From a bacterium (GTDB lineage: Bacteria; Patescibacteriota; Saccharimonadia; CAILAD01; GCA-016700035), in the NCBI GenBank assembly GCA_016700035.1, contig CP064998.1:135021-199020 (forward strand): a DNA stretch of 64,000 nucleotides, read 5' to 3'. The translations under genes were made by a program, and so were the position numbers. This document shows, piece after piece, positions 4,016-43,105 of the stretch. The notes beneath the pieces are model-generated. The model did not search any database, was not told the DNA's origin, and saw nothing but the letters and a program-made list of their open reading frames with translations. Numbering within the stretch: position 1 is the stretch's first letter; each line of letters begins with the position of its first letter.

Positions 4016-4092
4016 GCCGATGTAGCTCAGCTGGCCAGAGCAATGCTTTCGTAAAGCAGAGGTCGGCGGTTCAAATCCGCCCATCGGCTCCA
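4016..4092 (+). tRNA. tRNA-Thr (anticodon CGT), discriminator U
   Basis: acceptor GCCGATG/CATCGGC, D-arm GCTC..GAGC, anticodon loop TTCGTAA, T-arm GGCGG-TTCAAAT-CCGCC, CCA encoded. Confidence 0.8.
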
Positions 4093-4561: not shown

Positions 4562-6236
4562 TCTTTCTGGGTCTAACATAGAAGTATCGCATAGGTTGGT
4601 ACGGATTTTTGAAATATTACCAGGCTTGGCAACATGGATAACCATTTTTTTACCAATCGTTCTTTCGATTTATGCCCCCGTGGTGGTTGCATACTTTATT
4701 ATTGCCTTTGATCTTTTTTGGTTGATGAAATCATTTCGTATGAGCTCAGCTTTATTGGTGGGGCATAGGAGGCTACGAATTGCTACTCAGCTAGATTGGG
4801 TGGCACGATTAAAGCACCTGGAAACTATGATGGATGGAGGTGGAGTTCAGGAGGTGGAGCAGGCCATTGTTGAAGGTAAGCGAGAACAGAGTTTTTTCTG
4901 GTATTTTTCTCGAGTAGGTAGACGAAAACATGAGAAACTACAACAGCTTCAGGTAGAGCTGGATAATCTACGCAATACGGGAGTATTTCAAAAGACAATA
5001 AAGCCTTCAGATGTTATACATGTAGTAATTTTAGCAACGTATAATGAAACATTAGAAACATTAAGGCCGTCACTTGAGGCGCTTGCTCAGGTTAATTATG
5101 ATTTAAGTAAGATTTGGTTGGTTATTGCACACGAAGAACGGGGTGGTGATGTGGATCGTGAGCGTATTGCGACTTTAAAACAAGAATTTGATGGTAAATT
5201 TGCCCGACTCATGAGCTTTGAACATCCAGATGGTATTGTTGGTGAAGAAAAGGGTAAGGGGGCTAACATTACCTATGCTGGACGACAGGTCTTAAAAGCT
5301 ATAAGAAAAGATAAAATCAATATAAAGAGTGTAGTTATTACAACACTAGATGCAGATCATCGTCCTGATCCAGAATATTTTAATCATCTTACTTATTCAT
5401 TTGTCACATCGGAAACACCTAAGCATTATTCATATCAACCAATTCCAATGTTCTTTAATAATATTTGGCATGTACCAGCACCAATGAGAGTGATTGCAAC
5501 TGGTAATTCTTTCTGGGTAATAATCAATTCGGTGCGCCCACATCTTTTGCGTAATTTCGCCAGCCATTCACAGCCCTTGGAGGCACTTGTAGATACGGAC
5601 TTTTGGGCAACTTGGTCGGTGGTGGAAGATGGGCATCAATATTGGCGGAGTTACTATCGTTATAATGGACAATATCGAGTTGAGCCAATATATGCTCCAA
5701 TTTATCAGGATGCAACATTGGCATCGGGTTATTTTAAGACTTTTAAAAATCAATACTTACAGATGAGGCGTTGGGCTTATGGAGTGTCGGACGTACCATA
5801 TGTGGCCATTCAAAATATGCGACACCCTAAAATACCAAAAAGCTCACGGACTGTTCATTTTTGGCGCCTTTTTGAAGGGCACTTCTCCTGGGCAACCGCT
5901 CCATTAATATTAACCTTCGTTGCTTGGATGCCACTATTTTTGAATGCCAGCTTTAAATACAGCGTATTAGCGCATCAGTTGCCAATTATTGCCTCGCAGA
6001 TTATGACAATTGCCATGGTTGGCTTATTCCTTACTATCTGGCTTTCAATTATTTCACTACCGCAGAGACCTAAGAGTAAGAAAAAAATTCACGGTTTATT
6101 CATGATCTTACAGTGGGCACTGCTACCAATCGTGGCGCTTGGGTTTGGAGCTTTGGCTGCAATTGATGCGCAAACACGCTTGATGCTTGGTAAGTATCTT
6201 GGCTTTCGTGTTACCGAAAAGGCGGTTAAAGAATGA
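4545..6236 (+). CDS. membrane-embedded family-2 glycosyltransferase, processive-synthase-like (DxD and QxxRW motifs)
   Basis: VVILATYNE..., TLDADHRPD (DxD), LQMRRWAYG (Q-x-x-R-W), N- and C-terminal TM helices as in cellulose/chitin-synthase-like GT2. Confidence 0.75.
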   Translation: MARVNSLSGSNIEVSHRLVRIFEILPGLATWITIFLPIVLSIYAPVVVAYFIIAFDLFWLMKSFRMSSALLVGHRRLRIATQLDWVARLKHLETMMDGGGVQEVEQAIVEGKREQSFFWYFSRVGRRKHEKLQQLQVELDNLRNTGVFQKTIKPSDVIHVVILATYNETLETLRPSLEALAQVNYDLSKIWLVIAHEERGGDVDRERIATLKQEFDGKFARLMSFEHPDGIVGEEKGKGANITYAGRQVLKAIRKDKINIKSVVITTLDADHRPDPEYFNHLTYSFVTSETPKHYSYQPIPMFFNNIWHVPAPMRVIATGNSFWVIINSVRPHLLRNFASHSQPLEALVDTDFWATWSVVEDGHQYWRSYYRYNGQYRVEPIYAPIYQDATLASGYFKTFKNQYLQMRRWAYGVSDVPYVAIQNMRHPKIPKSSRTVHFWRLFEGHFSWATAPLILTFVAWMPLFLNASFKYSVLAHQLPIIASQIMTIAMVGLFLTIWLSIISLPQRPKSKKKIHGLFMILQWALLPIVALGFGALAAIDAQTRLMLGKYLGFRVTEKAVKE

Positions 6237-9071: not shown

Positions 9072-12000
9072 GTGATATCAGGTATAATAAGCACAAGTAG
9101 TTTTATGGTGCTCTTACAAGAGGCTGTTACCAAGAATTTTATGAAGAAAAATACAATTGAACATCTGGGGCAAGCCTCAAAAAAAGTCTTAGCTACACCT
9201 GGCAGGTGCTATGTTGCGGCATCTTCTACGCGAAGTCGCACAATTATTCCAGTTCATCAGAAGCTATCTAAAAAATTTGGCTGGTATGAGAAGTGGCACA
9301 AGCATCCTCATCACAAGAAGGTGCATGGGGCGGTGTTGGGTGCTTATCTGATTGCTTTAATTGTATCCTTTAGTATTTTTCAGATGGCAAAGGCTGGAGA
9401 CCTTAATGATGTTTGGGATTTTTCGAATGATACCGGCCTTACGCTATCAGATTCTAACCTGATTGAAGTAAGTAATGGGGTGGTTCGCTTGAAAGCCCAG
9501 AACTACGCTAGCGACGGAAATACAGTGGGTTTGTGGCATAGTGATGAAAATAGTGGATCAACCATGGCTGATAGTTCGGCAAACGGCAATACAGCTACTT
9601 TGGTAGGTTCTCCAACTTGGTCGGTAGGTAATTTAGTAAATGCTATTAATTTTAACGGCACCAGTCAGTATGCTAGCGCGAATGATTCGGCCTCACTCTC
9701 CATAACTGGAAATAATACGCTGGAAAGTTGGGTAAAATTCTCTAACCCATTTAGTGCTGGTTCGTCGCAATATCGACAAACCATACTGGATAAAGGTAGT
9801 TATCAACTTTATTATGATAGCGAGACAGGTCGAGTAACTTATGAGCTCGAAAATAGTGGGGCAAACTCTTGGACTCAGCAAGCTGGGTACGACATGTTAA
9901 ATAATAACGGTGCAAAAATAAAGAAGAGTTGGGATCAAAACGGCAAACAAAATGCACAAGCAACCGTTAAGATGGGCGATAAAATTTATGCAGCTTTGGG
10001 TGGAAGCACGAATGATGCAGAAATATGGGAGTATGATACTTTAACCAATGACTGGAGTCAGGTTGCTGGAGATGGCATCAACTCCAGTTGGAATAACGAA
10101 ATAAGCACCAATGCATATGAATCTGTTTTGTCGTTGGCAACAAATGGTACAGACACTTTGTATGCAGGTCTAGGCACTGGGACTAACGACGGAGATGTTT
10201 GGCGTTTTAAAAGCGGTTCGTGGTTAAAAATAGGTGGTGATGGCATCAATTCAAGTTGGCCAGGTAACTCTTTTAACGGTGTATATTCATTAGCCGTAAA
10301 TGGCTCCACCGTTTGGGCAGGACTTGGCAGCGGTGGTAACGCAGCTCAAGCGTGGGTATGTAATGATTGTGAAAATAATCCTAATTGGGGCGGAAGCCGA
10401 TTAGGTGGCTTTAATGGAACTGCTCGTGGTTGGCCAGCTAACTATGAAATTGTATATGCAATGACGTTGGTTGGAGGCAATCCAGTGGTTGGGTTAGGAG
10501 CAAGTGCGGGTGATGGCGAAGTTTGGCAGTGTACGGCTAATTGTTCTACTCCAGGATCGGCTACGTGGGTTAAACTGGGTGGTGACGGGAGTGGATCTGG
10601 AGGTCAGAGTTGGGGGTCGGCTGCCGAATATGTGCTTACACTTGCATCCAATGGTAATACTATCTATGTTGGCACCGGTGTTACAGCTAATGCAGACACT
10701 GAAGTCTGGTCGTGTGATGTGACGGTTAATTGCACGCCAACTGGTACTGGCTGGACAAGACTTGGTACTAATGCTACTTTTGGTTCGACTAAACTCGGGG
10801 TTTATAGTATCTCGAACAATGGCAGTACATTGTATGTGGGGGTCGGTGGCTCAACTGGAGACGATGAAGTTTGGCGTTATGATGGGTCTTGGACAAAAGT
10901 TGGTGGCGATAATCTTAATAGCGGTTGGAGCTCTACTCATCAATATGCAAGGTCAGTTTTAGTGGATGGCACAACTGTTTATGCAGGCCTGCAAAATACC
11001 ACAGAAGCATATATGTGGAAGTGCTCTAACTGTGATAGTTCACCTAACTGGGGCGGTATACGTATCGGCGGTAAATACGTTAATAAAAGTTGGGGTCAAT
11101 ATAATTTACAAAGTATTGAATCATCGTCAACGGCTGGTGGAAAATTGTATGTTGGTACGGGCAGCACGGTTGCTGGAAATGCAACGGTATGGGAACAAGA
11201 TCCATCTTCTGGAAATTGGACTATGGTTGGGGGTCAAGGTATAAATTCAAGCTGGAGTCCGGATACTTACGAGGCGGTCTGGTCGATGACCAATTATAAA
11301 AATAAACTATATGTGGGCTTGGGAAGTACAGTTGGTGAGGCAGAAGTTTGGCGTTATGATAACCCTGGTTGGACTAAAGTAGCCGATGGTAATCCATCGG
11401 TTGGTAGTGCATGGGGCAATAACTATGAGCAGGTGTTGTCTTTAGGGGTTGCGAACGACAAACTTTATGCTGGGCTAGGTGCAAGTTCTGGTGACGGAGA
11501 AGTTTGGGTTTGTAATGGATGTGATGGAGCAAGTCCAAATTGGGGTGGTGCAGCAATCGGTGGAACAGCAACTGGCAATTGGGGCACAACGCCACATTCT
11601 GCGGTTAGCTCAATGGTTACATATAAAGGATCTTTATATGTGGGCCTGGGTAATTATACTACTGGGCTTGCAGAAGTTTGGCGTTACAGCGGTGCTGGCA
11701 CAAACTGGACAAAAGTTGGCGGAGATGCCATTAACTCTAGTTGGGCAAATAGCCAGTATGAAGATGTGCCAAACTTAGTTGTTTGGAATGACAAGATCAT
11801 TGCTGGACTTGGATCTAGTGGAGTTGGAGCTCCAAATAATGACGCAGAGGTGTGGTCATGTACGGATTGCGACGGAGGTTCACCAACCTGGGCTAAAATC
11901 GGTGGTGATAGTAATGGGTCTGATAATTTGGGCTGGTTGGATGCGAGCAATTATGATAGGGTAAAATCTTTAGCGGTTTATAACGGTGATTTATATGCTG

Positions 12001-15000
12001 GGCTCGGACTGAGTACTGGTGACGGAGAAGTTTGGCGGTTTAACGGATCTGCCTGGTCGCAAGTTGGTGGTGACGGTACAAATAACGGCTGGATAGATTC
12101 TGTTGTCGAAGAAGTCTCGGCAATGATTGTTTATCGTGGAAAGCTGTATGTAGGTACTGGCAACAGCGCAAATAGCGATGCTATGGTCTGGTCATATGGA
12201 GATAACGGCTATTTACAATCTTCGACCACCAGCCAAGATACTAGTTGGCACCACGTGGCAGCTCGCTATAACGGTACCACTATGGAGCTTTTGATAGACG
12301 GCACCAGTGTTGGTACAGCTACTAAAACAGTTACCATGCCGGATGGCAATTTGCCACTTTTGCTTGGTAAATCTTATGGTGGTTTTGACAACGGTCGCTC
12401 ACAAGGGTTTTTTGAAGGAACTTTAGATGAAGTCCGTATTTCAAATATTAATAGAAATTCATTTACTACAAGTCCCTATACGAGCAGTGTGGTTACAGTA
12501 GAGCTAACAGATGCTATACGTAAAAATGGTGTTTGGAATTGGGATTCGCTTATGGCTACAGAAAATCCAGCCGGTGGAACCATTGCTTATCGACTGAGTG
12601 ATGATGATGGAGTGAGCTGGAAGTATTGGGATGGTTCGAGTTGGGCAAATTCAGCGTCGGTCACTCAGGTGAATGCTATATCTGTAATTGATACAAATAT
12701 TGATTCATTTCCAGTGAGCTTTTCGGGTATTAAATGGCAGGCAGTTTTGCAGGGGAACGGCAATCAGCAAGTTTCGGTTGGTGATATATCATTATCTTCG
12801 GTTTCAGATAGTGATGATCCTAGTGTAAATGCATCATCTATTCAGATGCAGAAATCAAACGGTGGTCCTGCGGTAATCAGTAATGGCTGGACTAATGGCT
12901 CAGCGCCATATTTTAGCTGGACGGCAGCCAATGACGCAAAATCCGGGATTAAAGGGTACTGTTTAAGCTTGAGTCAGACACCTTCAGATAATCCAATTAC
13001 AACAAAGGGGATCTTAGGTACTAGCCCAGCTAACACGGGTGGCAATTGTCAATTTGTTGTGACTACTACATCAATTGATCTAGCAACTGCTGGCTATCTA
13101 GCAACACCCCTAACATCATCAAGCTCCCCATATTATCTAAGTATTAAGGCAATAGATAATGCAGGTAATGTTTATAGTACCACTGAACAGTTCCAATTTA
13201 GGTTTGACAATACCAATCCTGCAAATCCGGGCTATATAACTGCTCCATCTGGCTTTATTAACACTAAACAGGCAACATTGACTTGGCCGAGTTCTGGTGG
13301 GACTGCGGCCCAAGATACTAACTCGGGTGTAGCCGGCCTACAATATCGCATTAATGGCGGCACTTGGTATGGAGATAACCATAATGGTAGTCAGGATGCT
13401 ACTGATCTACTATCAAATGATGGTAATTATGCGACAGTTGATCCAATAGATTTTAATGTGCTTGTTGATGGAATTAATACTTTTGAATTTAGGACATGGG
13501 ATAATGCCGGTAATTATACGACAAGCTTTGTTACAGCGGATTTAAAGATAAATACAAATGGTGCACCATCGCAGCCTCAAAATGTTACTGCGAGCCCGAG
13601 TACTAATACGGCCAATGCTTTTGCTTTTAGCTGGGATGCACCCACAACTTTTGTAGGGGACGAGAATAACCTAACTTATTGCTATACGATTAATACGGTA
13701 CCAAATGCAAGTAATTGTACATTTACACCACCAGGTATCACGTCTCTTGGATCGAATGCCTATGCGACTCAACCTGGTGCAAATATTTTCTATGTAGTCG
13801 CTAAAGATGAATCAAACAATATAAATTACACAACATATTCACAGGTGACTTTTACTGCTAATACTGTTGCTCCGGGTATCCCACTAAACTCAGATATAGT
13901 CGATGTTTCTATTAAGTCGACGAGCAATTGGCGCCTTGCTCTCACCTGGGATCCACCGACCAATATTGGTTCAGGTGTTGCTTCATATAAGATCTACCGG
14001 TCAACAAATAATGCCACATTTGTTTATATTGGATCCAGTACGAGTACAACGTATATTGATGCGGGACTTTCCCAGGTTGAATATTATTATCGTGTAAAGG
14101 CATGTGACTCTACTAATAATTGTGGCGCTGAGAGCTCATCAGTTTCAATGATCCCAACGGGTAAATTTACCTCACCAGCTAATCTTACAACAGACCCTAG
14201 TGTAGCTAATATTACAACACGTAGGGCTAGTATTGATTGGTCCACGGATAGACCAAGTGATTCAAAAATTGCAATCGGTACCAAAACTGGTGAGTATAGT
14301 CCTTCTGAGCTCGCTAACTCCGATCAAGTTACCAGTCATATGATTGACTTAACAAATCTCCAAGCTGGTACGACGTATTATTATGTTGCTAAATGGACCG
14401 ATGAGGATGGTAATACAGGTATGAGTTCAGAGCTGTCGTTTACGACCTCTCCAGCTCCAATAGTTAAAGAGGTACAAGCAACTAGGATCGGTTTAAGCTC
14501 TGCTACGATTCAGTTTTCAGTGCGACAAGCCACACAGGCTAAGATTTATTATGGCCAAAGTGAAGGGTTTGGTGGCCTAAAGTTGGTTAATACATCCACG
14601 GCTGAATCTAGTTATACTGTTGATTTAGCAGATCTATCGGATGGGGTAAAATATTTTTACAAAGTTAACAGTGTAGATAGTGAAGGCAATGAATATGAGG
14701 GTAGTGTTCTAACTTTTACAACACCACAAAGGCCAAAGATATCAAATGTTACGCTTCAACCTGTAGAAGGCGAGCCAACAAGCACCCAGCGTGTTGGTTG
14801 GATAACTAATGTGCCTACCACTTCTCAGGTAGTGTACGGTCGTACAGGCGGAGTGACTCAAGAGATTAGTGATTCACAATTGGTTACAGAGCATGAAGTA
14901 GTAATGCGTGACTTGCAGGATGATAGTCAGTATTCACTAATAGTCCAGTCGCGAGATGATGGTGGTAATCTTGCGACAAGTGAGCGTCAGGTTTTTAAGA

Positions 15001-15395
15001 CAGCATTAGACACTAGGCCACCAAAAGTGTCTGATGTAAGTGTAGAAACTACAATTCGTGGAGTGGGTAGCGAGGCTCGTGGTCAATTAGTAATAACCTG
15101 GAAGACGGATGAGCCCTCAACCAGTCAAGTTGCTTTTGGAGAGGGTGCTAGCACTGCATCATTCTCCAGTATGACAACTGAAGATGCTATTTTAACCACT
15201 GAGCACATTGTTATTGTCTCGGATCTATCAACAGCAAAGGTTTACAATGTACAGGCGCTATCAAAGGATAGGTCGGGTAATCAGGTTAAATCTGACCCCC
15301 AGTCTACAATAGTGGGGCGTGCTTCTGACTCTGTACTATCCATTATCTTTAATACTTTACAGAAGATGTTTGGTTTTTTGGGTAAGGAAAGTTAA
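9072..15395 (+). CDS. giant (2107 aa) membrane-anchored surface protein: N-terminal basic tail + single TM, about 14 beta-propeller-like repeats, LamG/concanavalin-like domain, long array of FN3/purple-acid-phosphatase-N-like domains, conserved C-terminal tail
   Basis: single uninterrupted ORF; repeats of type LYxGxG...GDGEVWxC..C....NWGG; LamG-like segment HHVAARYNGTTMELLIDG...LDEVRISN; C-terminal 1000 aa homologous to 46277..50794. The true start may be the internal Met at about 9141. Confidence 0.85.
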   Translation: MISGIISTSSFMVLLQEAVTKNFMKKNTIEHLGQASKKVLATPGRCYVAASSTRSRTIIPVHQKLSKKFGWYEKWHKHPHHKKVHGAVLGAYLIALIVSFSIFQMAKAGDLNDVWDFSNDTGLTLSDSNLIEVSNGVVRLKAQNYASDGNTVGLWHSDENSGSTMADSSANGNTATLVGSPTWSVGNLVNAINFNGTSQYASANDSASLSITGNNTLESWVKFSNPFSAGSSQYRQTILDKGSYQLYYDSETGRVTYELENSGANSWTQQAGYDMLNNNGAKIKKSWDQNGKQNAQATVKMGDKIYAALGGSTNDAEIWEYDTLTNDWSQVAGDGINSSWNNEISTNAYESVLSLATNGTDTLYAGLGTGTNDGDVWRFKSGSWLKIGGDGINSSWPGNSFNGVYSLAVNGSTVWAGLGSGGNAAQAWVCNDCENNPNWGGSRLGGFNGTARGWPANYEIVYAMTLVGGNPVVGLGASAGDGEVWQCTANCSTPGSATWVKLGGDGSGSGGQSWGSAAEYVLTLASNGNTIYVGTGVTANADTEVWSCDVTVNCTPTGTGWTRLGTNATFGSTKLGVYSISNNGSTLYVGVGGSTGDDEVWRYDGSWTKVGGDNLNSGWSSTHQYARSVLVDGTTVYAGLQNTTEAYMWKCSNCDSSPNWGGIRIGGKYVNKSWGQYNLQSIESSSTAGGKLYVGTGSTVAGNATVWEQDPSSGNWTMVGGQGINSSWSPDTYEAVWSMTNYKNKLYVGLGSTVGEAEVWRYDNPGWTKVADGNPSVGSAWGNNYEQVLSLGVANDKLYAGLGASSGDGEVWVCNGCDGASPNWGGAAIGGTATGNWGTTPHSAVSSMVTYKGSLYVGLGNYTTGLAEVWRYSGAGTNWTKVGGDAINSSWANSQYEDVPNLVVWNDKIIAGLGSSGVGAPNNDAEVWSCTDCDGGSPTWAKIGGDSNGSDNLGWLDASNYDRVKSLAVYNGDLYAGLGLSTGDGEVWRFNGSAWSQVGGDGTNNGWIDSVVEEVSAMIVYRGKLYVGTGNSANSDAMVWSYGDNGYLQSSTTSQDTSWHHVAARYNGTTMELLIDGTSVGTATKTVTMPDGNLPLLLGKSYGGFDNGRSQGFFEGTLDEVRISNINRNSFTTSPYTSSVVTVELTDAIRKNGVWNWDSLMATENPAGGTIAYRLSDDDGVSWKYWDGSSWANSASVTQVNAISVIDTNIDSFPVSFSGIKWQAVLQGNGNQQVSVGDISLSSVSDSDDPSVNASSIQMQKSNGGPAVISNGWTNGSAPYFSWTAANDAKSGIKGYCLSLSQTPSDNPITTKGILGTSPANTGGNCQFVVTTTSIDLATAGYLATPLTSSSSPYYLSIKAIDNAGNVYSTTEQFQFRFDNTNPANPGYITAPSGFINTKQATLTWPSSGGTAAQDTNSGVAGLQYRINGGTWYGDNHNGSQDATDLLSNDGNYATVDPIDFNVLVDGINTFEFRTWDNAGNYTTSFVTADLKINTNGAPSQPQNVTASPSTNTANAFAFSWDAPTTFVGDENNLTYCYTINTVPNASNCTFTPPGITSLGSNAYATQPGANIFYVVAKDESNNINYTTYSQVTFTANTVAPGIPLNSDIVDVSIKSTSNWRLALTWDPPTNIGSGVASYKIYRSTNNATFVYIGSSTSTTYIDAGLSQVEYYYRVKACDSTNNCGAESSSVSMIPTGKFTSPANLTTDPSVANITTRRASIDWSTDRPSDSKIAIGTKTGEYSPSELANSDQVTSHMIDLTNLQAGTTYYYVAKWTDEDGNTGMSSELSFTTSPAPIVKEVQATRIGLSSATIQFSVRQATQAKIYYGQSEGFGGLKLVNTSTAESSYTVDLADLSDGVKYFYKVNSVDSEGNEYEGSVLTFTTPQRPKISNVTLQPVEGEPTSTQRVGWITNVPTTSQVVYGRTGGVTQEISDSQLVTEHEVVMRDLQDDSQYSLIVQSRDDGGNLATSERQVFKTALDTRPPKVSDVSVETTIRGVGSEARGQLVITWKTDEPSTSQVAFGEGASTASFSSMTTEDAILTTEHIVIVSDLSTAKVYNVQALSKDRSGNQVKSDPQSTIVGRASDSVLSIIFNTLQKMFGFLGKES

Positions 15396-16344: not shown

Positions 16345-17606
16345 ACTTAGAGCATCATAACCAGCTGAATAGCCCTAAAAAGAAAAACAAAACAAAGTAT
16401 ATTCGTATGCGTATTTTGCTATCGATGGCTTATAGAAATTTACTATTTAAAAAGTTACGTACCTTTTTAACGGTACTGGGTGTTGTTATTGGGATTGGTG
16501 CAATTGTATTCTTGGTTTCACTTGGACTGGGGCTACAGCAGGTTGTGACAAATGAGATTGTAGGTTCTAAGTCGGTTAAAGCAATTGATGTTTCTTCACC
16601 TAAACCAAAAACCATTAAGCTCAATAAAGATGCAGTTAATAAATTCATTAAGTATCCTAAAGTTGATAGTGTGGCACCAACCTTCTCATTTGCGGGTAAA
16701 GTGGTATTTCAGAGTTCAAATACAGATAGTGTCATAAACGGATCTGACCAAAATTATTTTGATCTGAGTTCATTTAAGTTAGTTGAAGGCAAGAAGATTG
16801 CCTTGGAATCTGATGATCAAGTAGTAGTTAACACATCGCTTTTAAAGACCATTGGTATTTCAGATAGCTCTAAAATTATGAATCAGAAGATCAAGCTAGT
16901 TATACCAAAAGAGAAGCGTCAAGAAGCCAGCGGTAATAATGAGGTCAAAGATGATTTTGAAAGAATTATGACTGTTGTGGGGGTGGTTGATTCTGGGTCT
17001 GGTGCTGAGGTATTTACAACAGATACGCTACTTTTGAGTTCTGGTTTTCAGGACTATAATCAAGTAAAGGTGGTTGTCGAAACAAAAGAAGATGTTGCAA
17101 TGGTACGAAAACAAATCGAGGGCCTTGGATTTATCACCGCTTCACCAGTTGATACTTTAGATCAAATTAATCAAGTATTTACTATCCTGAATATTCTCTT
17201 AGCCGGATTTGGTGGTATTGGTATGGTGATTGCCGTATTGGGGATGTTTAATACGCTCACTATCTCGCTTTTAGAGCGTACCAAAGAAATCGGATTGTTA
17301 GTTTCTTTAGGGGCTCGCCGAAAAGATGTGCGGAGATTATTCATTATTGAGGCATTAGCATTATCATTTATGGGCGCATCATTTGGCATTATGGCATCGT
17401 GGGGATTAGGCGGATTAATTAATACGGCTTTATTTAGCCTTGCTAGATCTAGAGGGGTATCAGAAACTTTTTCAGTATTCTATATACCAATATGGTTAAT
17501 TTTGGTTATTCTGGTCTTTACTACTATCGTGGGATTGCTAGTAGTAGCATATCCTGCGCACAGGGCTTCACGTATTAGTCCGATAGATGCATTACGGCAT
17601 GAGTAG
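16341..17606 (+). CDS. ABC transporter permease, FtsX/MacB type (TM1, about 220-aa extracytoplasmic domain, 3 C-terminal TMs)
   Basis: FtsX-family C-terminal motif ISLLERTKEIGLLVSLGARRKDVRRLFIIEAL; ATGA overlap with the ATPase gene. Confidence 0.85.
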   Translation: MNLEHHNQLNSPKKKNKTKYIRMRILLSMAYRNLLFKKLRTFLTVLGVVIGIGAIVFLVSLGLGLQQVVTNEIVGSKSVKAIDVSSPKPKTIKLNKDAVNKFIKYPKVDSVAPTFSFAGKVVFQSSNTDSVINGSDQNYFDLSSFKLVEGKKIALESDDQVVVNTSLLKTIGISDSSKIMNQKIKLVIPKEKRQEASGNNEVKDDFERIMTVVGVVDSGSGAEVFTTDTLLLSSGFQDYNQVKVVVETKEDVAMVRKQIEGLGFITASPVDTLDQINQVFTILNILLAGFGGIGMVIAVLGMFNTLTISLLERTKEIGLLVSLGARRKDVRRLFIIEALALSFMGASFGIMASWGLGGLINTALFSLARSRGVSETFSVFYIPIWLILVILVFTTIVGLLVVAYPAHRASRISPIDALRHE

Positions 17607-17723
17607 ATCGATTGGCTCTAAACTAATTTTATAAATTTAATTATTAATAGTATTTTCTGTTAGCAATATTGCATGAAGTAATTTATTGCGGTATGATATC
17701 TGCGCTCTTTAGAATAGTGTTAA

Positions 17724-17800
17724 GGGTCCTTAGCTCAGTTGGCTAGAGCGCTTCCTTGACGTGGAAGAGGTCAGAGGTTCGAGTCCCCTAGGACCCACCA
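17724..17800 (+). tRNA. tRNA-Val (anticodon GAC)
   Basis: acceptor GGGTCCT/AGGACCC, anticodon arm CTTCC-TTGACGT-GGAAG, T-arm AGAGG-TTCGAGT-CCCCT, CCA encoded. Confidence 0.85.
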
Positions 17801-17836
17801 TAGAAATAGATTATACTTAACTTATATAATGAATAG

Positions 17837-18004
17837 GGCGTATGTAGCTTAACCAACTATTAGTCCCGTAGCTGCGGGCGTAACACGTAGCAAAACAGTG
17901 ATTCACCTTATCTCGATAGTGAATAAGCCTGGTGGAACCCCCCAATAACTTGGGGCCAGGCAACGAGATAGGTGTATTTTAATATTAATCGGAGAGAATT
18001 AGTT
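17837..18004 (+). promoter_or_regulatory. T-box riboswitch leader (Thr) of thrS; antiterminator at 17927..17961
   Basis: -10 TATAAT at about 17825-17830. Antiterminator: A1 GCCUGG / 7-nt bulge UGGAACC / A2 CCCCAA-UAAC-UUGGGG / A1' CCAGGC. This equals the canonical T-box AGGGUGGNACC architecture, and N=A pairs with the U discriminator of tRNA-Thr. Confidence 0.6.
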
Positions 18005-19807
18005 ATGAATAGCGAAATCCATGCCATGCGACACAGCTCAGCTCATGTGTTAGCTGCCGCATTATATAAGATATATCCAGGTATTATGTTTGGGGTTGGT
18101 CCAGTTATTGATAACGGTTTCTACTACGATGTATGCACTGAAGAAGCAATATCAGATAAGGAATTGAAGCGTATTACAAAAGAAATGCGCAGTATTATAG
18201 AGCAAGACTTACCAATTGAAAGAGAAGAGTGGACATTACAACAGGCTCTAGAATACTTTAAAAAGCACAACCAGAAATATAAGGTTGAATTATTGCAAGA
18301 TTTACAACAGTATGGTACGACAAGTATAAAAAATATAGATTCCTCAGACCTTGGTATAGATGATACTAATGTAAAAATCACTACAGTGTCGGTATATAGG
18401 ATTGGTGATTTTGTCGATTTGTGTCGAGGCCCTCATATTGCTTCAACTGGTCAGATTAAAGCATTTGAGTTAACCAGATTAGCTGGGGCTTACTGGCGGG
18501 GTGATGAAGCTCGGGATCAGTTACAGCGTATCTATGGAATAGCTTTTGATTCACAAGACGAGTTGGACAGCTATAAGGCAATGTTAGAGTTAGCTAAAGA
18601 GCGAGATCACCGTAAGCTGGGACGTGAACTAGATTTATTTACCTTTTCAGATTTGGTTGGACCAGGACTCCCATTGTGGACACCGCGTGGAACGGTTGTG
18701 CGTAATGAACTAGATCATTTTATACAAGAACTTCGAACTCAGTATGGATTTGAGGAAGTTACAATTCCACATATCACCAAAAAAGAGTTATATGAGCGGA
18801 GTGGTCATTGGAATAAATTTAAAGATGAGCTATTTAAGATTAAGTCACGCGATGGGCATGAGTTTGCGATTAAACCCATGAATTGCCCGCATCATACTCA
18901 AATATTTGATTCAAAACCTCGTAGCTATCGAGAGATGCCGGTTCGCTATCGTGAGACCACTATGGTTTATCGCGATGAGCAGAGCGGAGAATTACATGGT
19001 CTTTCTCGTGTTCGGTCGATTACCCAGGATGATGCACATATCTTCTGTCGCCCTAGTCAGGTTGAGCAGGAAGTATTGAATGTGTGGAGTGTTATCGAGC
19101 GATACTGGAAGACTTTTGGTGTGGATTTACGAGTTCGTCTGTCAACTCATGATCCAAAAAATATGAAGGCCTATTTGGGAGACGAAAAGCAGTGGAGGTT
19201 TGCCGTTGATCAGCTCAAGGCGGTTATTGTGGGGCAGGGAGTAGAATATGTTTTGGGTGAAGGCGAGGCTGCATTTTATGGCCCTAAGATTGACTTTATT
19301 GGCTCGGATGCTTTGGGTCGAGAATTCCAAGCCTCAACTATTCAGCTAGATTTTAATATGCCAGAACGGTTTGATTTGGCTAGTATTGATGAAGGTGGGA
19401 ATAGAGAGACTGTCGTAATGATTCATTGTGCTATAGCGGGTTCATTAGAGCGAAGTATTGTATTGTTGCTAGAGCATTTTGGTGGTAGTTTTCCAACCTG
19501 GCTGGCACCACAGCAAGTTGCGGTACTGCCAATATCAGAAAAGTTTGTAGGCTATGCTGATGATATTACAACAAAACTACAAGGTAGAGGAGTGCGAGCT
19601 GAGTTAAGTGCCGAAAATGAATCACTAGGTAAGCGTATTCGCTTAGCAGAGATTAAGAAAGTCCCGTATATAATTATAGCTGGTGAGCGTGAAGTTGAAG
19701 ATAATACAGTAGCGGTACGAAAATTTGGTGAAGGTGATATTGGGGTTATTCAATTTGAAGAATTTATAGAAAATGTCACAAGTGAGATTGAACAACGCAA
19801 ACTCTAG
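18005..19807 (+). CDS. thrS: threonyl-tRNA synthetase (lacks N-terminal TGS domain; starts at the N2 editing domain)
   Basis: class II aaRS motifs, RHSSAHVLAAAL editing-domain start, C-terminal anticodon-binding domain; RBS GGAGAG 7 nt upstream of ATG 18005. The track ORF 17972 start is probably inside the leader. Confidence 0.9.
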   Translation: MNSEIHAMRHSSAHVLAAALYKIYPGIMFGVGPVIDNGFYYDVCTEEAISDKELKRITKEMRSIIEQDLPIEREEWTLQQALEYFKKHNQKYKVELLQDLQQYGTTSIKNIDSSDLGIDDTNVKITTVSVYRIGDFVDLCRGPHIASTGQIKAFELTRLAGAYWRGDEARDQLQRIYGIAFDSQDELDSYKAMLELAKERDHRKLGRELDLFTFSDLVGPGLPLWTPRGTVVRNELDHFIQELRTQYGFEEVTIPHITKKELYERSGHWNKFKDELFKIKSRDGHEFAIKPMNCPHHTQIFDSKPRSYREMPVRYRETTMVYRDEQSGELHGLSRVRSITQDDAHIFCRPSQVEQEVLNVWSVIERYWKTFGVDLRVRLSTHDPKNMKAYLGDEKQWRFAVDQLKAVIVGQGVEYVLGEGEAAFYGPKIDFIGSDALGREFQASTIQLDFNMPERFDLASIDEGGNRETVVMIHCAIAGSLERSIVLLLEHFGGSFPTWLAPQQVAVLPISEKFVGYADDITTKLQGRGVRAELSAENESLGKRIRLAEIKKVPYIIIAGEREVEDNTVAVRKFGEGDIGVIQFEEFIENVTSEIEQRKL

Positions 19808-20669
19808 CGAAAATAAGTTAGTTGCTTTTGTTGGTCCGACGGCTTCTGGTAAAACGCAGGCAGCACTAGATTTAGCTAAGATAATACCTTCGGAGATTAT
19901 ATGTGCTGATTCGCGTACGGTTTATAAAGAGCTTGATATAGGTACAGCAAAGCCTACGGCAGAAGACCAGTCTCGAATTCCTCATTATGGGCTAGATTTA
20001 GTTTCACCAGGTGAAAAATATTCGGTTGCTGATTTTGTGATATGCGCAGAGGGTGCCTTACGCGATATTTGGGCACGAAATAAAACGGCAATTCTGGTCG
20101 GTGGAAGTGGCTTATATATAGATGCAATTTTGTTTGGTTATAAATTTCGTAATCAGGCTCGAGACATAAAAGACTGGGAAAAATATAGTAATGACGAACT
20201 TATGCAGTTAGCTAAAAAGCTTTATCCGGGCGCCATAAACACAATTGATGTAAAAAATACTAGGAGATTACAGCAACTTATACTTAGAGGCCCTACAAAT
20301 ACCTCAGATCGTGAGTCATTAAAATATGAAGTAAAGATTATTGGAATTGACCCAGGTTTAGAAAATCTACAGATAAGAATTGAAAAGCGGACGGACAATA
20401 TGTTGGGCCAAGGATTTGTTCAAGAATGTGATAACCTTATAAAAAAGTATGGTAAGGACTGTCCGACACTACAAACAACTGGTTACTCGGCAGTGGCTGA
20501 ATATCTAACTGGTAAGCAAGACTTAGATACGATGCGGAGGCAAATTATTACTGATACAAAAAGATTAGCCAAGAAGCAGCGTACTTGGTTTAGGCGTAAT
20601 TCATTGATAACTTGGGTGCGAGACGAGAATACGGCAATCGATATGGCAGTCTCCTACTTATCGAAATAA
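19773..20669 (+). CDS. miaA: tRNA dimethylallyltransferase
   Basis: P-loop VAFVGPTASGKT, IICADSRTVYKELDIGTAKPT. Confidence 0.85.
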   Translation: MSQVRLNNANSSENKLVAFVGPTASGKTQAALDLAKIIPSEIICADSRTVYKELDIGTAKPTAEDQSRIPHYGLDLVSPGEKYSVADFVICAEGALRDIWARNKTAILVGGSGLYIDAILFGYKFRNQARDIKDWEKYSNDELMQLAKKLYPGAINTIDVKNTRRLQQLILRGPTNTSDRESLKYEVKIIGIDPGLENLQIRIEKRTDNMLGQGFVQECDNLIKKYGKDCPTLQTTGYSAVAEYLTGKQDLDTMRRQIITDTKRLAKKQRTWFRRNSLITWVRDENTAIDMAVSYLSK

Positions 20670-20686
20670 CAGGGTACAATAATAGT

Positions 20687-22042
20687 ATGAAGCGTTTACG
20701 TAACACAATTGGGGTTGGAGCAGGTAAGGCTACCGGCTGGACGATGAGAGCTCTGGGTAGGTCAAGCACTGCCTTGCCGGGATATGTTGCAGAACGGATT
20801 GGTCGGAATCCGCTACAGCACTATTTGCGTAACCGTCACTATGCTAAGACAATCTTAATAACGGGTACGAACGGTAAGACAACTACAACTATGCTGATAG
20901 CTGAAGTAATGAAGCTAGCCGGGTTGAGGGTTGTTAACAATAGATCTGGGTCAAACTTAACTCGAGGAGTATTAACGGCCCTACTTGCAGATACTAGAAG
21001 GGGCGACGATACAGTACTTTTACTGGAGGTAGATGAGGCTAGCATGTCGGCTGTTTGTCAGGCAACTAATCCAGATATAATTGTGGTTTCAAATATTTTT
21101 CGTGATCAGTTGGATCGATATGGTGAAGTTGATACTACGCGGAGACTTTTGCGCCAGGCAATTGAGTTGGCGCCAAATGCTGAGTTGGTACTGTGTGCTG
21201 ATGATCCACATGTTGCTAGTCTAGCCTTGGATCTGAAGAGAAAAGTCCATTATTTTGGTATGAATACTAATGGTATTAAAGCTTTAGAACATGATCACGC
21301 TAGTGATATACCACTTAGCCCTATTACTGGTGTGCCACTGAAATATAGTCGGCGATATTTTGGTCACGTTGGAGTATATAGGGCAACGGATGGAAGCTTC
21401 TCACGACCTACACCAGATGTATCGGTTGAAGATATTGGCCTGCATGATTCAGTGCAGGTGGTTACTTTTAAGCTTAAAAATCAATCCAGTAAGATGGTTG
21501 TGAAGAGCCCGTTATTAGGGGTATATAATGGCTATAATCTGGCCTCTGCAATTACGGTGGCACTTGCTTGCAATCTAGGTAATGATGTAATAATTTCTGC
21601 ATTGCAGAATAATAGCAGGGCTTTTGGTAGGCAGGAATCAATCACATATCAGGGGCGACAATGCACATTTTTACTAGTTAAAAATCCTACCGGCTTTAAT
21701 CAGGTGATTCAATCATTCTTTACTAAGCCCACGAACTCACCAATATTAATTGTAATTAATGACAATTTTGCTGATGGTCGGGATGTATCCTGGCTGTGGG
21801 ATGTGTCCATTGAGGACATTTCAACGGATGGCCCAATTATTGTTTCTGGTTTGCGCGCATACGACATGGCATTGCGGCTAAAATATGCCGATAAGAATTG
21901 TCGAGTTATTGAAGATCCGATGCAAGCCATCTCGGAGCTGGTGCAAGTTGGAGGGGATGAAACGATATATATTTTGCCGACCTATACAGCTCTACTAGAT
22001 ATACGTAAGCAGTTATCGCTTAAACTGGAGCACAGTTCATGA
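20687..22042 (+). CDS. murT: Mur-ligase-family protein, lipid II isoglutaminyl synthase MurT-like
   Basis: Mur ligase P-loop ILITGTNGKTTTT; N-terminus aligns with the MurT start; immediately followed by a GatD-like amidotransferase gene (ATGA overlap). Confidence 0.65.
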   Translation: MKRLRNTIGVGAGKATGWTMRALGRSSTALPGYVAERIGRNPLQHYLRNRHYAKTILITGTNGKTTTTMLIAEVMKLAGLRVVNNRSGSNLTRGVLTALLADTRRGDDTVLLLEVDEASMSAVCQATNPDIIVVSNIFRDQLDRYGEVDTTRRLLRQAIELAPNAELVLCADDPHVASLALDLKRKVHYFGMNTNGIKALEHDHASDIPLSPITGVPLKYSRRYFGHVGVYRATDGSFSRPTPDVSVEDIGLHDSVQVVTFKLKNQSSKMVVKSPLLGVYNGYNLASAITVALACNLGNDVIISALQNNSRAFGRQESITYQGRQCTFLLVKNPTGFNQVIQSFFTKPTNSPILIVINDNFADGRDVSWLWDVSIEDISTDGPIIVSGLRAYDMALRLKYADKNCRVIEDPMQAISELVQVGGDETIYILPTYTALLDIRKQLSLKLEHSS

Positions 22043-28897: not shown

Positions 28898-29282
28898 GCA
28901 AGTAAGCAGGTGACCGCTCCATATTTTTGGAGAGGAAAGTCCGAACAGCTTGAGTACAGGATGGTTGCTAACGGCAACCCGGGGTAACCCGAGGGAAAGT
29001 GCCACAGAGACAATACCGCCAGATGCATGTCTGGCAATGGTGAAAAGAGGGCGGTAAGAGCGCCCAGCTTGTATCGGTGACGATACAAGGAGGTAAACCC
29101 CATCCGCTGCAAGGCTTATGGATCCCGATTTTATCAAAGTGTACTCACTTTTCTCGGCTCGAGAGGGATATGTCGCATGATTGCGGGAGAACTGCAACAC
29201 TGTATTTTTTACAAGAGATAGATGGTCATCACCCTATAAGATAGGCTTATAGGGGACAGAATTCGGCTTATCGCTTGCTTGT
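28898..29282 (+). ncRNA. rnpB: RNase P RNA, bacterial type A
   Basis: conserved blocks GAGGAAAGUCCG (P4 5'), GGGAAAGUGCCACAGAGACAAUACCGCC, GGUGAAAAGAGGGCGGUAAGAGCGCCCAGC, ACAGAAUUCGGCUUAUCG (P4 3'); extended -10 TGGTAAAAT upstream; hairpin terminator 29283..29315. Confidence 0.85.
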
Positions 29283-29343
29283 CCGCAAAAGTTACTATGC
29301 TAGTAGTTTTTGCGGAAGCTTTTAACCTGATACAATAGAGGAA

Positions 29344-42701: not shown

Positions 42702-43105
42702 GGGGCTGACATTAGCTTCGACAGAGTGATCATTGACAGGCATATCTCGCAAGCCGGGTTGAGATGAACGTTATCCGTCTCATATCAATAAGTGTAAACT
42801 CACTTGTTAGCAAGGTACGCAGTGCTTTTGTAGCACCCGCTCTTGCACCAGCTTTCGCTTAATTCGTGGAAGCCATCCTGTAAGCTCATACTAGCTAGAG
42901 CTTCAATGGGTGTCATATCTTTGCTAGTTGCTTCAAGGCGTGTTCTGTGTCCGCGTTTTGACTAAGACTTTAGATATCGGGAAAGGCGTGAGGATTGGTT
43001 CGTTTTTGTCTCGCTGTCTTTCTAAAACAAGTTAAGCGAACTAAGCTTGTAGTGAGTATGCGTGGCACACACTGGACGAGGGTGCGATTCCCTCCAGCTC
43101 CACCA
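42702..43105 (+). ncRNA. ssrA: tmRNA (SsrA)
   Basis: 5' GGGGCUGACAUUAGCUUCGACAG and 3' GGACGAGGGUGCGAUUCCCUCCAGCUCCACCA (tRNA-Ala-like T-arm/acceptor); internal ORF ending ...GCACCCGCUCUUGCACCAGCUUUCGCUUAA (tag about ...APALAPAFA*). Confidence 0.8.

Follow-up and report, generated by a model that had tools for sequence, protein, structure and literature searches.

A probable miniature T-box riboswitch in the leader of a patescibacterial thrS gene

Introduction

[quoted passage not shown] T-boxes of the glyQS type have no Stem II domain and possess a long Stem I with a platform. The thrS operator of E. coli acts at the level of translation; it carries a mimic of the tRNA-Thr anticodon arm, which is bound by the threonyl-tRNA synthetase (ThrRS). 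Furthermore, actinobacterial ileS T-boxes with an 'ultrashort' Stem I have reportedly been described by Sherwood and colleagues in 2015 and with the structures of the ileS leaders from M. tuberculosis and N. farcinica (reviewed in PMC7583486).

In the T-box discriminator, A1, the bulge and A2 come after the motif 5'-RRRxG-Stem III-AA-3' (PMC7583486). According to the current view, a transcriptional T-box depends on a long Stem I that carries an elbow platform, and leaders with a truncated Stem I depend on a complete Stem II domain (PMC7583486). The TBDB resource looked for T-boxes with a short Stem I in Actinobacteria only (PMC7778990). Gene regulation in Patescibacteria was called 'virtually unknown' in a recent perspective, in which only synthetic riboswitches are mentioned (PMC11665869). 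Our own search for T-boxes in Patescibacteria, CPR, Saccharibacteria or metagenomes returned nothing relevant from the full-text literature, a body of text that most subscription journals lie outside of.

Here, we describe the leader of a thrS gene in a 64,000-nt stretch of bacterial DNA, the whole of which is called the window in the following; all features are located on its forward (+) strand. The leader spans positions 17836-17986, and the gene behind it, which is presumed to be the regulated one, extends from 18005 to 19807 with ATG at 18005 as start codon. It encodes a ThrRS of 600 aa with the Pfam domains tRNA_SAD, tRNA-synt_2b and HGTP_anticodon; the TGS domain is missing from this short version of the enzyme. 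From the comparison of related sequences, we regard the element with high confidence as a T-box leader specific for tRNA-Thr. Moreover, we consider it quite probable that positions 17836-17986 represent a miniature T-box riboswitch, which tunes thrS expression to the charging of tRNA-Thr and in which the terminator forms at the expense of Stem III. A T-box on thrS had already been proposed in the initial annotation of this DNA, and the proposal is now backed by a bulge that is invariant in 26 of 26 leaders, by covarying helices, by a threonine codon loop in 24 of these 26 leaders, by the discriminator motif and by sub-threshold alignments to RF00230.

Homologous leaders and the thrS promoter region

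Judged by its ThrRS, the organism belongs to the Patescibacteria (CPR) and is close to MAGs that carry the label Saccharibacteria. The ThrRS encoded in the window shares 80% identity with the protein of the related locus L001, 78% with L021, 73% with L002, 70% with L004 and 62% with L005. The sequence GGUGGAACC, flanked by complementary arms that covary, occurs upstream of thrS in most of the loci for which enough upstream sequence exists. A pattern search of metagenomes provided three true members, namely L081, L082 (identical to L002) and L084; the additional loci L083 and L085 were unrelated. Seven leaders, those of the window, L021, L081, L002, L004, L084 and L005, were used to build a covariance model, named R1, which covers Stem I, the hairpin P2, Stem III, A1, the bulge and A2. 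When applied to both strands of 644 kb, R1 gave 26 matches, and all of them were located just 5' of a patescibacterial thrS gene and on its coding strand.

In the alignment of these 26 leaders, 92.4% of the cells are paired compared to 33-48% when the strands are slid, and two-sided changes are found in 33 of the 34 pairs, pairing counts that are inflated because the alignment was fitted to R1. None of 500 shuffles reached the observed values in this alignment. As an independent check, the seven leaders were aligned with MAFFT alone, without fitting to R1, and from this alignment RNAalifold returned the same P1 (Stem I), P2, Stem III, A1 and A2, with compensatory changes in 21 of 33 pairs. All five sensor helices covary.

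A candidate -10 element, TATACT, is found at 17812..17817. It is kept in relatives, where it stands 14-17 nt 5' of the base of Stem I (L021, L081, L002, L004 and L084). The initial annotation had favored a TATAAT at about 17825 as -10. This sequence is indeed present at 17825-30, but the conserved -10 among the relatives is TATACT; the arrangement TAGAAA-18-TATAAT is only a match to the consensus, and since TATAAT is unique to the window, TATACT is preferred. A tRNA-Val(GAC) ends at 17800, approximately 35 nt 5' of the leader.

The antiterminator-type element and its fit to tRNA-Thr

The core of the leader is an antiterminator-type element at 17927..17961, which is found by RNAfold as well as by covariation. 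It consists of A1 (GCCUGG at 17927-32 and CCAGGC at 17956-61), the T-box bulge UGGAACC with a length of 7 nt (17933-39) and A2, in which CCCCAA (17940-45) and UUGGGG (17950-55) enclose the loop UAAC (17946-49). The letters of this hairpin are exactly as they had been read in the beginning, and RNAfold predicts the hairpin together with a helix that encloses it. Across the 26 leaders the sequence UGGAACC is identical in every case, and both A1 and A2 covary. The element thus has features in common with class I T-boxes, i.e. a 7-nt UGGNACC bulge between A1 and A2, whose N is complementary to the tRNA discriminator, and the arrangement RRRxG-Stem III-AA in front of it.

The window also encodes a tRNA-Thr(CGU) at 4016..4092, in which the discriminator U73 corresponds to position 4089 and the CCA end is encoded directly behind it. 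That the UGGA of the bulge complements the tRNA-Thr discriminator was part of the original proposal, and it holds for this tRNA and for the tRNA-Thr(CGU) of L084, both of which end with U73-CCA. The bulge has N = A in every leader, so there is no covariation between N and the discriminator to be read. Moreover, the tRNA-Thr(CGU) of the window fits the leader only through its discriminator, because the codon ACC in the leader needs tRNA-Thr(GGU), and the latter isoacceptor is not encoded in the 64,000-nt window.

Unlike class I T-boxes, in which the closing pair of A2 is G-U, A2 of the window is closed by the pair C17940-G17955 and thus has no G-U wobble at this position. Among the 26 leaders, the closing pair (columns 217/254 of the alignment) is G-U in six, C-G in six, G-C in five, U-A in three and A-U in two cases. 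The leaders with G-U are distant ones in which the terminator lies downstream; in the clade of the window the pair is C-G. It is mainly through a G-U wobble closing A2 that the 3'-aminoacyl group is described to be sensed (PMC7583486).

An ultrashort Stem I carrying a threonine codon

Stem I (P1, 17836..17866) is an ultrashort hairpin of 31 nt with GGGC/GUCC and GUAG/CUAU pairs and a 9-nt terminal loop (CUUAACCAA, 17848-56). It is backed by RNAfold, by RNAalifold on the unfitted MAFFT alignment and by covariation across the 26 leaders. The terminal loop contains the threonine codon ACC and the 3' purine A17855 (together 17852..17855), which we read as the specifier. A hairpin loop of the type ACN-R-N is present in 24 of the 26 leaders, whereas no other codon box reaches more than 9 of them. 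Mostly, the specifier reads ACC-R, and ACG-A is found in L084 and L011. The same contig on which L084 with its ACG specifier is located encodes the above-mentioned tRNA-Thr(CGU) with U73-CCA. Two specifier candidates had been put forward in the initial annotation, ACC at about 17847 and ACG at about 17885. The first one is the right codon, but its true site is 17852-54; the second one, ACG at 17885-87, was dismissed because it straddles the loop and the stem of P2. A specifier that matches the regulated aminoacyl-tRNA synthetase, agreement with the 'C rule' (ACC), the purine 3' of the codon and a read-out by a hairpin followed by a U-tract are all found in class I T-boxes as well.

Nevertheless, the architecture of Stem I differs from class I T-boxes, since it comprises only approximately 31 nt, presents the codon in the terminal loop and has neither platform, AG bulge nor Specifier internal loop. 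Correspondingly, an elbow-binding platform formed by a distal double T-loop was looked for in the 31-nt hairpin along with the AG bulge and the Specifier internal loop, and none of them is there. In the window, the sequence in place of the K-turn at the Stem I base (GUAUG/UUA) appears degenerate; K-turn-like GA/GA motifs were seen by eye in L014, L007 and L016.

The initial annotation had compared the leader with the reduced T-boxes of actinobacterial ileS genes, and this comparison holds. Both share the truncated Stem I without elbow platform, an extra domain before the discriminator and the discriminator core (PMC7583486). However, the actinobacterial T-boxes belong to Ile, whereas the leader in the window belongs to Thr and to a different phylum.

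Stem III, the enclosing helix and the mode of control

Upstream of Stem III we find the purine-rich linker AAAACAGUG (17892..17900), the last five nt of which form an RRRxG-type string. In the window this string reads CAGUG and therefore has a C instead of a purine at position 1; the relatives have AAGAG, GAGUG or GAGAG. Stem III (17901..17924) is formed by AUUCAC (17901-06) and GUGAAU (17919-24) around a 12-nt loop, and a conserved AA (17925-26) follows directly on its 3' side. The complete RRRxG-Stem III-AA motif is accordingly present in the window as CAGUG-Stem III(17901-24)-AA. Stem III covaries across the leaders, and RNAalifold recovers it with compensatory changes.

The helix enclosing the antiterminator-type element, already noticed in the initial annotation with coordinates that were off by 1-2 nt, does exist and is formed by 17904-15 and 17964-74. 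Its 5' strand CACCUUAUCUCG (17904..17915) takes up 3 nt at the 3' end of the 5' strand of Stem III as well as the greater part of the Stem III loop, and its 3' strand CGAGAUAGGUG (17964..17974) pairs with this Stem III region. Enclosing helix and Stem III are mutually exclusive due to the shared strand. Directly 3' of the helix follows the U-rich tract UAUUUUAAUAUU (17975..17986), which is proposed as the termination point. Hence, the former statement that the leader has no obvious U-tract terminator does not hold, all the more as relatives have UUUUU(G/A)UUU at the equivalent site. In detail, the tract reads UUUUUAUUUUU in the closest relative L001, UUUUUAUUU in L021 and L081, UUUUUGUUU in L002, L004 and L084, and UUUUUAUUA in L005; in the window it is interrupted. 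A simple terminator scan of the window leader reported nothing, which is explained by the compound nature of the hairpin.

Folding of the seven clade members gave a uniform picture. In 7/7, an RNA truncated after the 3' strand of A1 folds Stem III, and the full-length RNA folds the enclosing helix, which replaces Stem III and makes the fold 7.6-14.9 kcal/mol more stable. Stem III of the window is weak (-2.5 kcal/mol). Likewise in 7/7, the stretch of 12 nt leading up to the U-run has its partner in the Stem III region, with duplex energies of -9.5 to -16.5 kcal/mol and z-scores between -1.3 and -3.4, compared to -3.7 to -8.5 kcal/mol (z around 0, -1.2 to +1.4) for pairing of the same strand with the 3' half of the antiterminator. 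The terminator of the window clade hence differs from that of class I T-boxes, since its 5' strand is situated in Stem III, upstream of A1, and not in the 3' halves of A1/A2. In 18 of 19 distant leaders, the strand that runs into the U-run has the 3' half of A2/A1 and the following spacer as its partner; in some of these leaders there is substantial overlap with the 3' strand of A1, a feature of classical T-boxes too, and in L015 and L016 the overlap amounts to only about 3 nt.

Comparative support for the enclosing helix could be evaluated for its five basal pairs, since differences in loop length put the upper pairs into different columns. On the unfitted alignment 31 of 31 cells are paired in this part compared to 29-58% when slid. 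The covariation is modest, with two pairs showing two-sided changes and 5 of 500 shuffles reaching the observed values, in a clade of seven sequences that includes two near-duplicates. One nucleotide shared by both structures (alignment column 81) changes in concert with each of its partners, being A-U in four and G-C in two cases in Stem III and likewise in the terminator, which is the pattern expected of two maintained alternative pairings.

These data have to be weighed against the possibility that the leader is derived from a T-box but does not switch any longer, i.e. that it keeps a vestigial sensor and that the enclosing helix is a constitutive terminator, perhaps ending read-through from tRNA-Val, or a stabilizer. 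The compatibility of A1/A2 with the enclosing helix would fit such a view, because the classical mutual exclusion is absent, as would the loss of the G-U wobble in A2. Since A1/A2 survive in the terminator fold, tRNA binding might oppose termination or be neutral to it. However, the bulge, the AA, the purine string, the specifier loop and Stem III are all kept, with compensatory changes, although ThrRS identity within the clade goes down to 62%, and the strand common to Stem III and the enclosing helix covaries with both partners. We therefore regard a vestigial leader as unlikely.

A second alternative is a T-box that controls translation, in which binding of the tRNA frees the Shine-Dalgarno sequence as in actinobacterial ileS and the enclosing helix is merely structural. 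So far, an ultrashort Stem I has been a hallmark of T-boxes that act on translation (PMC7583486), the U-tract of the window is imperfect, and the terminator scan was negative. On the other hand, the Shine-Dalgarno sequence of thrS, GGAGAG (17991..17996, 8 nt 5' of ATG 18005), has no complement in or beside the antiterminator. A conserved partner was searched for among the relatives and not found; the predicted partners differ from one relative to the next, with unpaired probabilities between 0.27 and 0.95. Moreover, the hairpin and the U-run are kept in 7/7 clade members and in the other patescibacterial leaders. Actinobacterial ileS T-boxes sequester the Shine-Dalgarno sequence, whereas the leader in the window shows a terminator-type hairpin plus U-tract and no conserved pairing of this kind. 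The U-rich tract after the enclosing helix, together with the absence of conserved Shine-Dalgarno pairing, makes transcription attenuation the better reading, and the suggestion of translational regulation made in the initial annotation is not supported by these two observations. Altogether, translational control appears quite unlikely, and the leader probably acts on transcription.

Proposed mechanism and its implications

For the riboswitch with a terminator competing with Stem III, we infer the switching mechanism from the known mechanism of T-boxes. During transcription Stem I, P2, Stem III and A1/A2 would fold, and the anticodon of tRNA-Thr(GGU) would pair with ACC. If this tRNA is uncharged, its free UCCA-3' end could pair with UGGA of the bulge. 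The purines flanking Stem III would then lock the complex, a step that a threonyl group at the 3' end would block; discriminator locking by the purines next to Stem III is known from solved T-box complexes (PMC7583486). The helix 17904-15 / 17964-74 and the U-rich tract are predicted to act as an intrinsic terminator that encloses A1/A2. Uncharged tRNA would hold Stem III in place, so that invasion by 17964-74 is blocked and the polymerase can read through into thrS. With charged tRNA or no tRNA, 17964-74 would displace the weak Stem III, and transcription would terminate at the U-tract. In such a scheme, A1, the bulge and A2 can stay paired in both states.

Beyond the window, many thrS genes of Patescibacteria (CPR) may carry uncatalogued miniature transcriptional T-boxes with sensors of approximately 100-165 nt and an ultrashort Stem I whose terminal loop presents the codon, and the terminator would have been rewired against Stem III in the Saccharibacteria-like clade of the window; we see the chances for and against this broader reading as evenly balanced. 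The leaders described here extend T-box regulation to Patescibacteria, among which some Saccharibacteria are now genetically manipulable, and they show that RF00230 as well as surveys in the manner of TBDB miss a whole T-box lineage. These thrS leaders join an ultrashort Stem I to a terminator, and some of the relatives do so without any Stem II. If the broader reading is true, docking of Stem III and the purine string on the tRNA 3' end suffices as a genetic switch, and the elbow-binding platform is dispensable for transcriptional T-boxes. Moreover, a terminator competing with Stem III would naturally assign sensing to A1, the bulge and A2 and switching to Stem III, a separation that would be useful for the understanding of the discriminator and for the engineering of small tRNA-responsive switches.

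The P2 hairpin

Between Stem I and the purine-rich linker, the hairpin P2 (GCUGCG/CGUAGC, 17871..17891, 21 nt) stands alone at the position of Stem II. Its loop GGCGUAACA is conserved, as are its flanks, with CGUA on the 5' side and an A-rich sequence on the 3' side, and the stem covaries between GCUGCG/CGUAGC, CCUAUG/CAUGGG and GCCAGU/GAUUGGC. Loop and flanks resemble the F-box and the S-turn, and a pseudoknot partner for P2 was looked for and not found. P2 may represent a reduced Stem II domain with an S-turn or F-box-like CGUAA. Actinobacterial ileS T-boxes have a Stem II of approximately 70 nt plus a IIA/B pseudoknot, whereas P2 is a single hairpin of 21 nt. In most of the 26 leaders P2 is missing or different. 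The distant patescibacterial thrS leaders L008, L010 and L012 have only an A-rich linker from Stem I to Stem III and resemble the T-boxes of the glyQS type in their compactness, but unlike these the patescibacterial leaders have no long Stem I with platform.

The P2 loop also gave rise to the idea that ThrRS itself binds the leader as an operator, in the manner of E. coli thrS, with GGCGUAACA mimicking the anticodon loop UUCGUAA of tRNA-Thr(CGU). The two systems have in common the same gene and a structured 5' leader tied to the recognition of tRNA-Thr. Furthermore, CGUAA in the P2 loop equals positions 34-38 of the tRNA-Thr(CGU) encoded in the window, and the loop is conserved within the clade. 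However, L002/L082 have CGCAA and thereby lose the equivalent of U36, the 9-nt loop is out of register with an anticodon loop, and P2 is not a general feature of the 26 leaders; an operator of the E. coli type with an anticodon mimic containing equivalents of G35 and U36 was rejected on these grounds. Moreover, the loop of Stem I holds a codon and not an anticodon, and the T-box bulge would be left unexplained. The E. coli operator resembles the tRNA and has the enzyme as its ligand, whereas the leader in the window, with its codon and its NCCA-binding bulge, is predicted to bind the tRNA. A ThrRS-bound operator is thus very improbable.

Database searches

The initial annotation had named a scan with the Rfam covariance model RF00230 and a comparison with the thrS leaders of related genomes among the checks of its T-box, and had made its withdrawal dependent on the lack of both a match and a conserved UGGAACC context. 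The comparison showed the context to be conserved. In contrast, the Rfam scan gave no match in the window at the gathering score, nor one with E<=10 over 17600-18100, and 19 related loci likewise gave zero matches to RF00230 at the gathering score. The gathering threshold of this family is 93 bits, and even L023, a full-length thrS T-box from Chloroflexi with AGAGA box, F-box, ACC specifier and UGGA, reaches only 41.1 bits. The negative Rfam result is therefore weak evidence, and the blindness of RF00230 to the leader in the window is another difference from class I T-boxes. Below the threshold, matches of 32-33.5 bits were obtained in L022, L008 and L012, and in L008 (33.4 bits) RF00230 aligns exactly on AAGAG-Stem III-AAA-UCGGGUGGAACCGC...GUCCCG. 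In L023, too, the model places its T-box sequence on the discriminator.

The 8-mer GTGGNACC occurs six times in the window compared to 3.7 expected occurrences, which is chance level, and the z-score for folding of the whole leader is unremarkable (-1.24), so that the case for more than chance rests on conservation. These two values and the missing Rfam match are all that speaks for a functionless chance hairpin in an AT-rich intergenic region, an explanation with practically negligible probability that is refuted by the 26 homologous leaders, which R1 finds exclusively 5' of thrS and with strong covariation. The scan of the window with Rfam 15 identified RNase P RNA, tmRNA and five tRNAs.

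Detection threshold and leader variants

The full-length T-box before thrS of Dictyobacter aurantiacus (related locus L023, 2610-2852; coordinates beside an L-number are those of that locus) possesses an AGAGA box, an F-box, an ACC specifier and UGGA, but reaches only 41 bits with the Rfam T-box family RF00230, compared to the gathering score of 93 bits. Therefore, even classical-looking T-boxes outside the Firmicutes are missed at the Rfam threshold.

In the Parcubacteria-type thrS leaders (L008, L010, L012), Stem I is ultrashort and only an A-rich linker of approximately 20 nt separates it from Stem III; a Stem II-like hairpin between these two stems is absent, which differs from the published view that a truncated Stem I makes Stem II essential. 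In the Saccharibacteria-type leaders (L015, 2822-2990; L016, 2536-2710), A1' shares only its AAA, the pairing partner of the U-tract, with the terminator hairpin, and Stem III is ill-defined; their expression platform appears to be one more variant. The L017 leader (approximately 2800-2870), in a locus that includes a run of N, carries ACGGAAU (context CUGGG-ACGGAAU-CGUC...) where the other leaders have UGGAACC.

Genomic context of thrS

Throughout the lineage, the leader is adjoined on its 5' side by tRNA-Val(GAC), which lies directly upstream at 17724-17800 in the window. This tRNA is found on the thrS strand in the window, L002, L004, L007, L015, L016, L021, L081 and L084, and on the opposite strand in L014 and L019. 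The two might be co-transcribed or have a common promoter region.

The ThrRS of the window (18005-19807) is a short form, in which the N-terminal TGS domain is absent. Relatives sharing 43-50% identity with it occur, among others, in Bdellovibrionota, Bacteroidota, haloarchaea (Halobellus) and Thermoplasmata, and this patchy distribution suggests horizontal transfer. Downstream, at 19773-22042, follow miaA (IPP transferase) and then murT, with the listed miaA ORF overlapping the 3' end of thrS; thrS, miaA and murT may form a single operon under the thrS leader. In L008, L011 and L012, the region just past the thrS stop (approximately 4740-4890) gave sub-threshold Rfam matches to the rimP leader (39.8 bits) and L20_leader (27.4 bits), a hint at another structured RNA ahead of the gene after thrS in other Patescibacteria.

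Other features of the window

The window also encodes a class A RNase P RNA (28898-29286, 215 bits), a tmRNA (42702-43105, tag VNSLVSKVRSAFVAPALAPAFA) and an ORF of 2107 aa (9072-15395), in which a second GGTGGAACC occurs at 12573, apparently by chance.
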